Origin: Puniceicoccales bacterium
GTDB taxonomy: Bacteria > Verrucomicrobiota > Verrucomicrobiia > Opitutales > JAIRLM01
Direction of reading: 5' to 3'
NCBI GenBank assembly: GCA_031268315.1
Contig: JAIRXK010000021.1
Coordinates: 8,859-72,858 of the forward strand
Length of the DNA: 64,000 nt
Positions 17,945-18,409 of the stretch are shown one piece after another. How positions within the stretch are numbered: position 1 is the first letter of the stretch; every line of letters begins with the position of its first letter. The position numbers and the translations under genes were made by a program. Below the pieces are notes generated by a model. The model worked only from the letters and a program-made list of their open reading frames with translations, did not search any database and was not told the DNA's origin.

Positions 17945-18409
17945 ATGCAGGGGATATCACGTGAAACTAAAGAACCGGACGTAAATTCGACTTCGCACGA
18001 TAATTCGAGTGAACCGGACAAGCTGGGTCCAACGGACGCAGCAGGCATAAGTCTGATCAATAGACTCAAAGCATTCGCCACTTCCTTCAAATTAAGCGGC
18101 AATGATCTGATCTTCGTCGCACTACCCGCAATCACCGGCATCATCACCGCCGGGGCGTTTTTGTTCATCCTGTCATTTGTAGCAAAAGTGGCGCTGGCCG
18201 GCTGGCTGATCGGCTTACTCATCGGCTTCAGCGCAATGATTGGACTGGCAACAGGCTCTGCCATGCAAATTATCTACGCCCCGGAAGAAGTTAAAGTGGC
18301 AAAGCATAATATTCCCAATTTAGCGAATGAGTTGAAGGCATTGAAAGCTTTGGCAAATGCGTGGAATGCATTGGATACTGTAATCGTTTTTTTAAAGATG
18401 ACGAATTAA
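17945..18409 (+). CDS. Inc-like membrane protein, N-terminal part (bilobed hydrophobic domain); probably truncated by a frameshift
   Basis: Polar ~60-aa N-terminus, then LIFVALPAITGIITAGAFLFILSFVAKVALAGWLIGLLIGFSAMIGLATGSAM. The ORF ends 16 nt after a T7 tract (18387-18393). Confidence 0.7.
   Translation: MQGISRETKEPDVNSTSHDNSSEPDKLGPTDAAGISLINRLKAFATSFKLSGNDLIFVALPAITGIITAGAFLFILSFVAKVALAGWLIGLLIGFSAMIGLATGSAMQIIYAPEEVKVAKHNIPNLANELKALKALANAWNALDTVIVFLKMTN

Follow-up and report, generated by a model that had tools for sequence, protein, structure and literature searches.

A gene for a predicted membrane-hairpin protein, split at a T7 homopolymer in a Puniceicoccales genome, is probably a young pseudogene

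Introduction

Incs are defined by type III secretion and by localisation to the inclusion membrane in Chlamydiae, and they have been described as specific to that phylum (PMC3048545, PMC6740158). Their hallmarks are a bilobal domain of 40-60 residues with a loop of fewer than 30 aa, an enrichment in coiled coils, and the grouping of their genes into 'hot spots' of consecutive members (PMC3048545). In the chlamydial pmpG and Inc-group families, paralogs diverge fast, intact copies stand beside frameshifted and truncated ones, and frameshifts occur at homopolymers. Expanded surface and effector families of Chlamydia phase-vary at poly-G/C tracts of variable length, whereas a frameshift in a poly-A tract of fixed length was read as a single mutational event (PMC6740158).

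Homopolymers may also be copied or decoded with a change of frame. RNA polymerase favours +1 insertions in A/T runs, at a frequency that rises exponentially with run length (PMC5574713), and efficient, productive transcriptional slippage has been described for runs of about 9 (PMC5009743). An insertion of this kind into the mRNA restores the long product of poly(A) pseudogenes in Buchnera and Blochmannia, of the type III secretion genes spa13, spa33 and mxiA in Shigella, and of dnaX in Thermus (PMC5009743, PMC5574713). HIV-type cassettes use the U6A heptamer U_UUU_UUA as a shift site (PMC5009743, PMC5737442), and -1 frameshift cassettes are found likewise in bacterial dnaX and in IS elements.

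Here we analyse a split gene in a 64-kb window (the whole stretch of DNA that was studied) from a Puniceicoccales MAG of the Verrucomicrobiota. The original prediction held that a T7 homopolymer divides an Inc-like gene into a membrane head and a coiled-coil body, and it offered four explanations, namely a recent inactivating frameshift, a phase-variation switch, transcriptional or translational slippage, and a sequencing error.

Results

The T7 homopolymer lies at 18387-18393 on the forward strand, in the context TAATCG-T7-AAAGATG, and marks the site at which the reading frame changes. ORF1 (17945-18409, +; MDR1437917.1) starts at an ATG and encodes 154 aa ending in ...DTVIVFLKMTN*. From position 18386 its codons read GTT TTT TTA AAG ATG ACG AAT TAA; after the run it adds five out-of-frame codons (LKMTN) and then meets a premature TAA in the shifted frame (18407-18409, +), the last base of which lies 16 nt past the run. 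ORF2 (18361-19767, +; 468 aa), whose frame is -1 with respect to that of ORF1, continues across the run; only within 18331-18406 are both frames free of stop codons. One T added to the run yields a single product of 607 aa with the junction ..NAWNALDTVIVFFKDDELIFSEDVILKIDEYF... This reproduces the original prediction in the position of the run, the stop 16 nt beyond it, the second frame open across it, and the junction of the repaired protein. A long form would carry VIVFFK (or VIVFLK) followed by DDELIFSEDVILK at the junction, and VIVFLKMTN forms the C-terminus of the short form. The interrupted gene as a whole covers 17945-19767 (+), or 607 codons if the run is restored to T8. It is entered at NCBI as two hypothetical proteins, LBI69_02540 and LBI69_02545, and the JGI annotation likewise calls two genes at the locus.

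The annotated GTG start of ORF2 (18361) sits inside the overlap, which is out of frame and non-homologous. The other in-frame start candidates near the junction are GTG or TTG at codons 37, 53 and 75, none of which is marked by any signal, and the first ATG is codon 181 (18901). ORF2 does have the predicted long stretch without an ATG, but the figure of about 190 codons given for it was not exact. A promoter-like site, TTGACA-16 nt-CATAAT (17887-17914, +), lies 31 nt 5' of the ORF1 ATG and matches the consensus at 11 of 12 positions; the region holds 13 promoter-like sites against 10.7 expected, and this one is weak evidence when taken alone. Upstream of ORF2, the best site in the consensus scan scores at most 9/12. 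Shine-Dalgarno motifs are scarcely used in this genome, so their absence before ORF2 is uninformative. Start-site calls in the MAG are uncertain for the same reason, as many of its genes have no recognisable motif. The annotated starts of two housekeeping genes in the window differ from those of the longest ORFs, with 374 aa (JGI) against 460 aa for MnmE (51985-53367, -) and 393 against 411 aa for DprA (19956-21191, -). The sole Rfam match is a tRNA-Lys(UUU) at 19828-19902 (-), located 60 nt 3' of the gene at the boundary with dprA.

When the repaired protein was compared with 5.8 billion clustered proteins, the matches were the 468-aa half itself and one protein of 609 aa, LBI69_01420 (P0002). 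The latter is encoded in the same MAG as LBI69_02540 and LBI69_02545, and is hence a paralog and not an ortholog. The alignment is colinear over residues 45-607 of the repaired protein (44% identity, E = 2e-125) and crosses the junction. At the run, NAWNALDTVIVFF followed by KDDELIFS-EDVILKI in the repaired protein aligns with NALRALDAAITLF followed by DADEASPSDENVIAKI in the paralog. The residues that each ORF encodes past the run in its own frame, LKMTN* in ORF1 and, upstream, VECIGYCNR in ORF2, have no match in this alignment. Both the protein alignment and tblastn place a change of frame in the homology at the T run, with identities to the paralog of 42-55% upstream and 46% downstream. The colinear match of the intact 609-aa paralog through the junction shows that the gene was ancestrally one ORF, and since paralog residues pair on both sides of the run, it is there that the frame changed. 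Judged by these alignments, ORF1 and ORF2 are the two halves of one ancestral gene of ~607 codons, as had been proposed. The part of ORF2 that is homologous to residues 175-609 of the paralog (18394-19767, +) comprises the 457 codons of the helical body and carries no further lesion.

The family has no match in Pfam, NCBIfam or the PDB sequences. With a family profile, an HMM search run exhaustively over 1.84 billion representatives matched five proteins, every one of them encoded by this MAG. They are the intact LBI69_01420, both halves of the split gene, and the fragments P0005 and P0006, which are pieces of a third copy directly upstream in the window. Within the collections searched, the family is restricted to this MAG as far as sequence similarity can trace it. 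A two-sequence profile found no relative of the locus among GTDB species representatives or JGI metagenome contigs, and DNA patterns that joined the exact flanks of the run through a gap of variable length had no match in the same two collections. The dprA and mnmE neighbourhoods of the nearest MAGs were also inspected; they are not syntenic with the locus and say nothing on its ancestral state.

The third copy is a tandem, decayed paralog at 16399-17534 (+), which we delineated with tblastn and blastn and regard as a pseudogene. It begins with a promoter remnant (16399-16444) that is 80% identical to the segment upstream of ORF1 (17869-17913), and has lost ~530 nt covering the N-terminus and the membrane domain, i.e. 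the 5' third. Its remaining body (16561-17392) has 68% nucleotide identity to the gene and 51% amino acid identity to LBI69_01420. This body is interrupted by an in-frame stop at 16736-16738 and by a +1 frameshift in an A8 run at 17297-17304; beyond 17392 comes an internal deletion, and 17436-17498 is the final stretch that can still be recognised. At the homologous site the studied gene has an in-frame A7 (19324-19330). Because the frameshift of the decayed copy is an A8 in place of an A7, homopolymer slippage is an observed mode of mutation here, and, on comparison of the copies, both frameshifts in the family are one-base changes in the length of A/T homopolymers. Two further features of the tandem pair may be recorded. 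The terminal 63-nt patch (17436-17498) is 95% identical to 19603-19665, against 68% for the rest of the two copies, and may reflect gene conversion between these tandem members. Elsewhere, the decayed copy is nearer to the distant paralog LBI69_01420 (51-54% amino acid identity) than to its neighbour (46%).

The ORF1 product consists of a polar N-terminus rich in Ser, Thr and Asn (residues 1-53), a hydrophobic hairpin, and a helical stub of ~40 aa. The bilobed hydrophobic domain spans residues 54-110 (LIFVALPAITGIITAGAFLFILSFVA-K-VALAGWLIGLLIGFSAMIGLATGSAMQIIY; 18104-18274, +) and reaches a peak of 2.27 on the Kyte-Doolittle scale with a 19-aa window, in agreement with the predicted membrane head. 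By hydropathy, it is continuous and composed of two segments of ~26-29 aa that are parted by Lys81, and an equivalent domain is seen by the same measure at residues 62-123 of LBI69_01420. This domain is the segment best conserved between the two proteins (55% identity). The downstream body is all-helical in an AlphaFold2 model of the paralog, a low-confidence model (pLDDT 56.6, pTM 0.37) built from a 6-row alignment. A crude heptad score is raised at residues ~449-603, with 41 windows against 8.5 ± 8.9 in shuffled sequences. The proposed coiled-coil body is accordingly a reasonable label for the C-terminal quarter, but not for the remainder, which looks more like a helical bundle. The position of the break corresponds to a predicted linker between helices in the paralog model (residues 178-181, pLDDT <50). 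A Foldseek search of the PDB with the same model returned generic long-helix matches such as F-BAR (E ≥ 0.03, TM < 0.2), which we rejected as uninformative.

The explanation that we favour, with a probability of about 0.6, is that the locus is a young pseudogene, or now yields a truncated product of 154 aa, following a recent T8-to-T7 slippage deletion within a decaying, genome-specific family. Proteins of this small family would be membrane-anchored and all-helical, with a hydrophobic hairpin of two helices placed between a polar N-terminus and a helical body of ~500 aa, the C-terminal quarter of which has heptad periodicity. Replication slippage would have removed one T from a T8, converting GTT TTT TTT AAA into GTT TTT TTA AAG. 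Translation from the ATG at 17945 would then end five codons past the run and leave the 154-aa head with its hairpin and short stub, and the 457-codon body, having no convincing start of its own, would be essentially unexpressed. As a minor exception, the body may still be reached by the few transcripts that gain a U through RNA polymerase slippage, or by the few ribosomes that shift -1 on U_UUU_UUA. In this explanation the family turns over by birth and death: of its three copies one is intact, another has suffered one lesion, and the third is a wreck.

Several parts of this explanation are reasoned steps. A loss from T8 is the probable direction of the change, the frameshift is probably real and not an error of the assembly, and the body probably lacks expression. 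The lesion appears young because the body contains no other stop or indel and is no more diverged from the paralog than the head is. An intact body would, however, fit a recent lesion and a body still in use equally well when judged from sequence. Together with the -1 phase of the heptamer at the run and with a break at a predicted linker that could tolerate two products, this intactness speaks against a pseudogene. Of the four options in the original prediction, the recent inactivating frameshift is nevertheless the one favoured by the decayed tandem copy, by a run of background length and by the lack of a recoding signal, and the other three are less favoured. The state of the family resembles that of the chlamydial pmpG and Inc-group families in the fast divergence of its paralogs, in the coexistence of intact, frameshifted and truncated copies, and in its homopolymer frameshifts. 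The lesion itself is like the single-event class with a poly-A tract of fixed length in the Chlamydia study, and not like its phase-variable class (PMC6740158).

To place the T7 run in context, we counted the homopolymers of the window, which contains 148 runs of 6 nt, 55 of 7 and 26 of 8; no run reaches 9 nt. Runs of 7-8 nt number 81, of which 62 are located inside 23 intact ORFs, including ORFs of 15.7 kb and 8.2 kb, and the studied gene itself carries an in-frame A8 (18607-18614) besides its A7. The distribution ends abruptly, since a geometric extrapolation would give about 19 runs of at least 9 nt; such an end is compatible with selection against slippage-prone runs, or with a technical ceiling of the assembly.

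An error of sequencing or assembly, or the consensus of a mixed population, with T8 as the true or major allele and an intact ORF of 607 codons, is an unlikely source of the split. Homopolymers are the classic site of indel miscalls. In addition, the locus is known from a single assembly, the JGI and NCBI records being the same 111,016-bp contig, and the remainder of the gene is flawless, as such an error would have it. Against this, none of the 62 comparable runs in intact ORFs breaks a frame, from which we calculate a per-run error rate below about 5% (95%), and no systematic homopolymer problem is visible.

The T7/T8 tract could instead be a working device. In a Puniceicoccales symbiont that deployed many Inc-like proteins with hairpin anchors, as its distant PVC relatives the chlamydiae do, slippage of DNA, RNA or ribosomes would set how much of the short membrane head is made relative to the full-length, anchored helical effector, or would turn production on and off. 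We see little prospect of this in general, and still less for each of the specific forms considered below.

At the DNA level, slipped-strand mispairing would alternate between T8 as the ON state, giving the 607-aa anchored long form, and T7 as the OFF state (or the 154-aa short form) of a host-exposed protein. The frameshift does fall exactly within a homopolymer, the intact body is what one expects of a gene that is temporarily off, and the Chlamydia families described above provide a precedent (PMC6740158). Yet the run is short, of background length and composed of T, and one state of it has been seen, unlike the poly-G/C switching tracts of variable length in Chlamydia. A T7 or T8 is ordinary here, and this one does not stand out as a tract reserved for hypermutation. 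Typical switching tracts are far longer than T7 or T8. The neighbouring MutS is intact and has all five domains (Pfam), giving no hint of a mutator background. Exact look-ups in a collection of 15 billion proteins recovered neither the 607-aa product of a T8 nor the 606-aa product of a T5. Phase variation consequently has a poor chance of being correct.

Programmed recoding, which we judge slightly poorer again, would have the T7 template yield short and long products in a set ratio, through a -1 ribosomal shift on U_UUU_UUA or through a U inserted by RNA polymerase. The run does contain the heptamer T_TTT_TTA (18388-18394, +) in the X_XXY_YYZ phase of ORF1 (GT/T TTT TTA/), formally a -1 slippery site that is identical in sequence and phase to the U6A shift site of the HIV-type cassettes (PMC5009743, PMC5737442), and a zero-frame stop follows within five codons. 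Two of the three phases of any T7 followed by A provide such a heptamer, however, and its phase therefore carries no weight. Unlike the -1 cassettes of HIV-type, bacterial dnaX and IS elements, the locus has no stimulatory element that we could detect: RNA folds of 60-143 nt downstream are weaker than those of shuffled sequences (z of +0.1 to +1.0), the sequence upstream of the heptamer contains no SD-like (GGAGG-like) motif, and Rfam identifies no frameshift element at the locus. The arrangement in two frames is not conserved among the homologs either, given that the only intact one is a plain single ORF of 609 aa that needs no frameshift, and the three copies of the family offer no support from conservation.

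As to transcription, the +1 U that would be needed here is the slip preferred in A/T runs (PMC5574713), and Shigella type III secretion genes make use of such slippage (PMC5009743). In this the locus is like the Buchnera, Blochmannia, Shigella and Thermus examples, where one inserted base in the mRNA restores the long product; it is unlike them in that its run is of 7 nt, as compared with about 9 or more for productive slippage (PMC5009743), in a window devoid of runs of that length. Some full-length product from rescue at the level of errors is plausible; a programmed ratio of products is not supported.

The least probable reading, to which we attach very little weight, is that the frameshift created two separately expressed genes, both of them maintained, one for a small protein of the membrane and one for a helical, soluble protein that is started by re-initiation or internally. 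In its favour, both annotators call two genes, the break coincides with the low-confidence linker, and the genome seems independent of SD sequences. Against it, the starts near the junction are limited to the GTG in the non-homologous overlap and the three unmarked codons that follow it, the first ATG comes as late as codon 181, no promoter-like site above 9/12 precedes ORF2, and the split form occurs in no other genome among the 1.84 billion representatives searched.

Discussion

The architecture of the repaired protein resembles that of chlamydial Incs in several respects. The polar N-terminal ~50 aa contain no signal peptide; they are followed by a hydrophobic domain of 57 aa that, by hydropathy, is bilobed, with two helices and a very short turn, and then by a long helical tail with partial heptad periodicity. 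As with Incs, there are several paralogs, and they are clustered with genes of the same architecture. Unlike Incs, the protein matches no Inc model in Pfam or NCBIfam and no PDB sequence. Incs are not one sequence family, and homology is a weak criterion for them. The genome also differs, being that of a Puniceicoccales MAG and not of a member of the Chlamydiae. MnmE and DprA of the window place it among Puniceicoccales and Opitutales, with nearest relatives that are only 51-58% identical, and the relatives of MnmE belong to these same groups (Cerasicoccus, 44-45%). The chlamydial origin implied by the term 'Inc-like' in the original prediction is rejected on this taxonomy; what holds is the likeness in architecture, and a sequence relation to Incs or to any other known family does not. 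We use 'Inc-like' here for architectural resemblance only and do not count the protein among the Incs. By analogy, it might also work like an Inc, a hypothesis under which it would face a host.

Seven more proteins of the window have hydrophobic domains of 45-70 aa by hydropathy, located near the N-terminus or at the extreme C-terminus, and none of them has a Pfam match. They are encoded at 21359-23557 (-), 23961-39665 (+), 55735-63972 (-), 47632-48342 (-), 48665-49507 (-), 49790-51943 (+) and 39987-40874 (-). Two of them are giants, at 5234 and 2745 aa, and have similar C-terminal anchors. Within its verrucomicrobial MAG, the window has the look of an island of orphan proteins that are anchored by hairpins. 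Its GC content is bimodal, with 47-53.5% in housekeeping genes (mutS, dprA, mnmE) and 36.5-39.6% in the orphan and anchored genes, which suggests a foreign origin of the latter or a strong bias in their amino acid composition.

Other orphans of the window deserve mention. The ORF at 1602-4052 (+) encodes 816 aa with a weak dual-specificity/tyrosine-phosphatase domain at residues ~540-640, its matches lying below the gathering score in three of four Pfam families and just above it for Y_phosphatase. It also matches the model of the type III effector XopH weakly, and on these profile matches is a candidate effector-like protein. A helical repeat, in which the motif ..(K/T)ALC..G.. precedes helices that are acidic or rich in lysine, recurs in the products of 21359-23557 (-), 43360-45114 (-), 46467-46970 (-) and 46967-47368 (-), one of which has a weak MgtE_N match; these proteins may constitute a second genome-specific repeat family. 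The orphan ORF at 40846-43278 (-; 810 aa) shares 29 nt with the next one, at 39987-40874 (-; 295 aa, carrying a TM anchor at its C-terminus). Their junction contains no homopolymer, and the pair could be either a normal gene overlap or another split gene.

Pfam identifies no T3SS genes within the window. In a related Puniceicoccales MAG, whose DprA is 44% identical, a full-length type III secretion chaperone of the CesT family is encoded beside dprA (L002, 9275-9718, +; PF05932, E = 7e-22), and two proteins of ~185 aa with hydrophobic domains of 50-70 aa are found there as well (7074-7634, -, and 7787-8341, -). In another relative, a gene upstream of dprA specifies a protein of 285 aa that has a bilobed domain at its C-terminus (L001, 1562-2419, +). 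The chaperone and the hairpin proteins of the related MAG are the only hint of a possible type III link for the lineage of the window.

Single-base slips in A/T runs are the commonest route of bacterial gene death. As a frameshift, the lesion described here has little weight, since the family it affects is redundant and was in decay already. In annotation terms, the entries LBI69_02540 and LBI69_02545 are best merged into one frameshifted gene, and 16399-17534 is best labelled a pseudogene. Should the tract prove to be a working device after all, it would have no described precedent, as a recoding or phase switch, among Inc-like proteins from outside Chlamydiae. Of greater interest than the lesion is its context, an uncultured verrucomicrobial lineage with low-GC orphan genes that encode hydrophobic hairpins in the style of Incs. 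Were these bacteria to live inside host cells as symbionts and decorate a host membrane, they would represent an independent, or a PVC-ancestral, version of the chlamydial Inc strategy, and the turnover of the family would be that of host-interaction genes evolving by birth and death.
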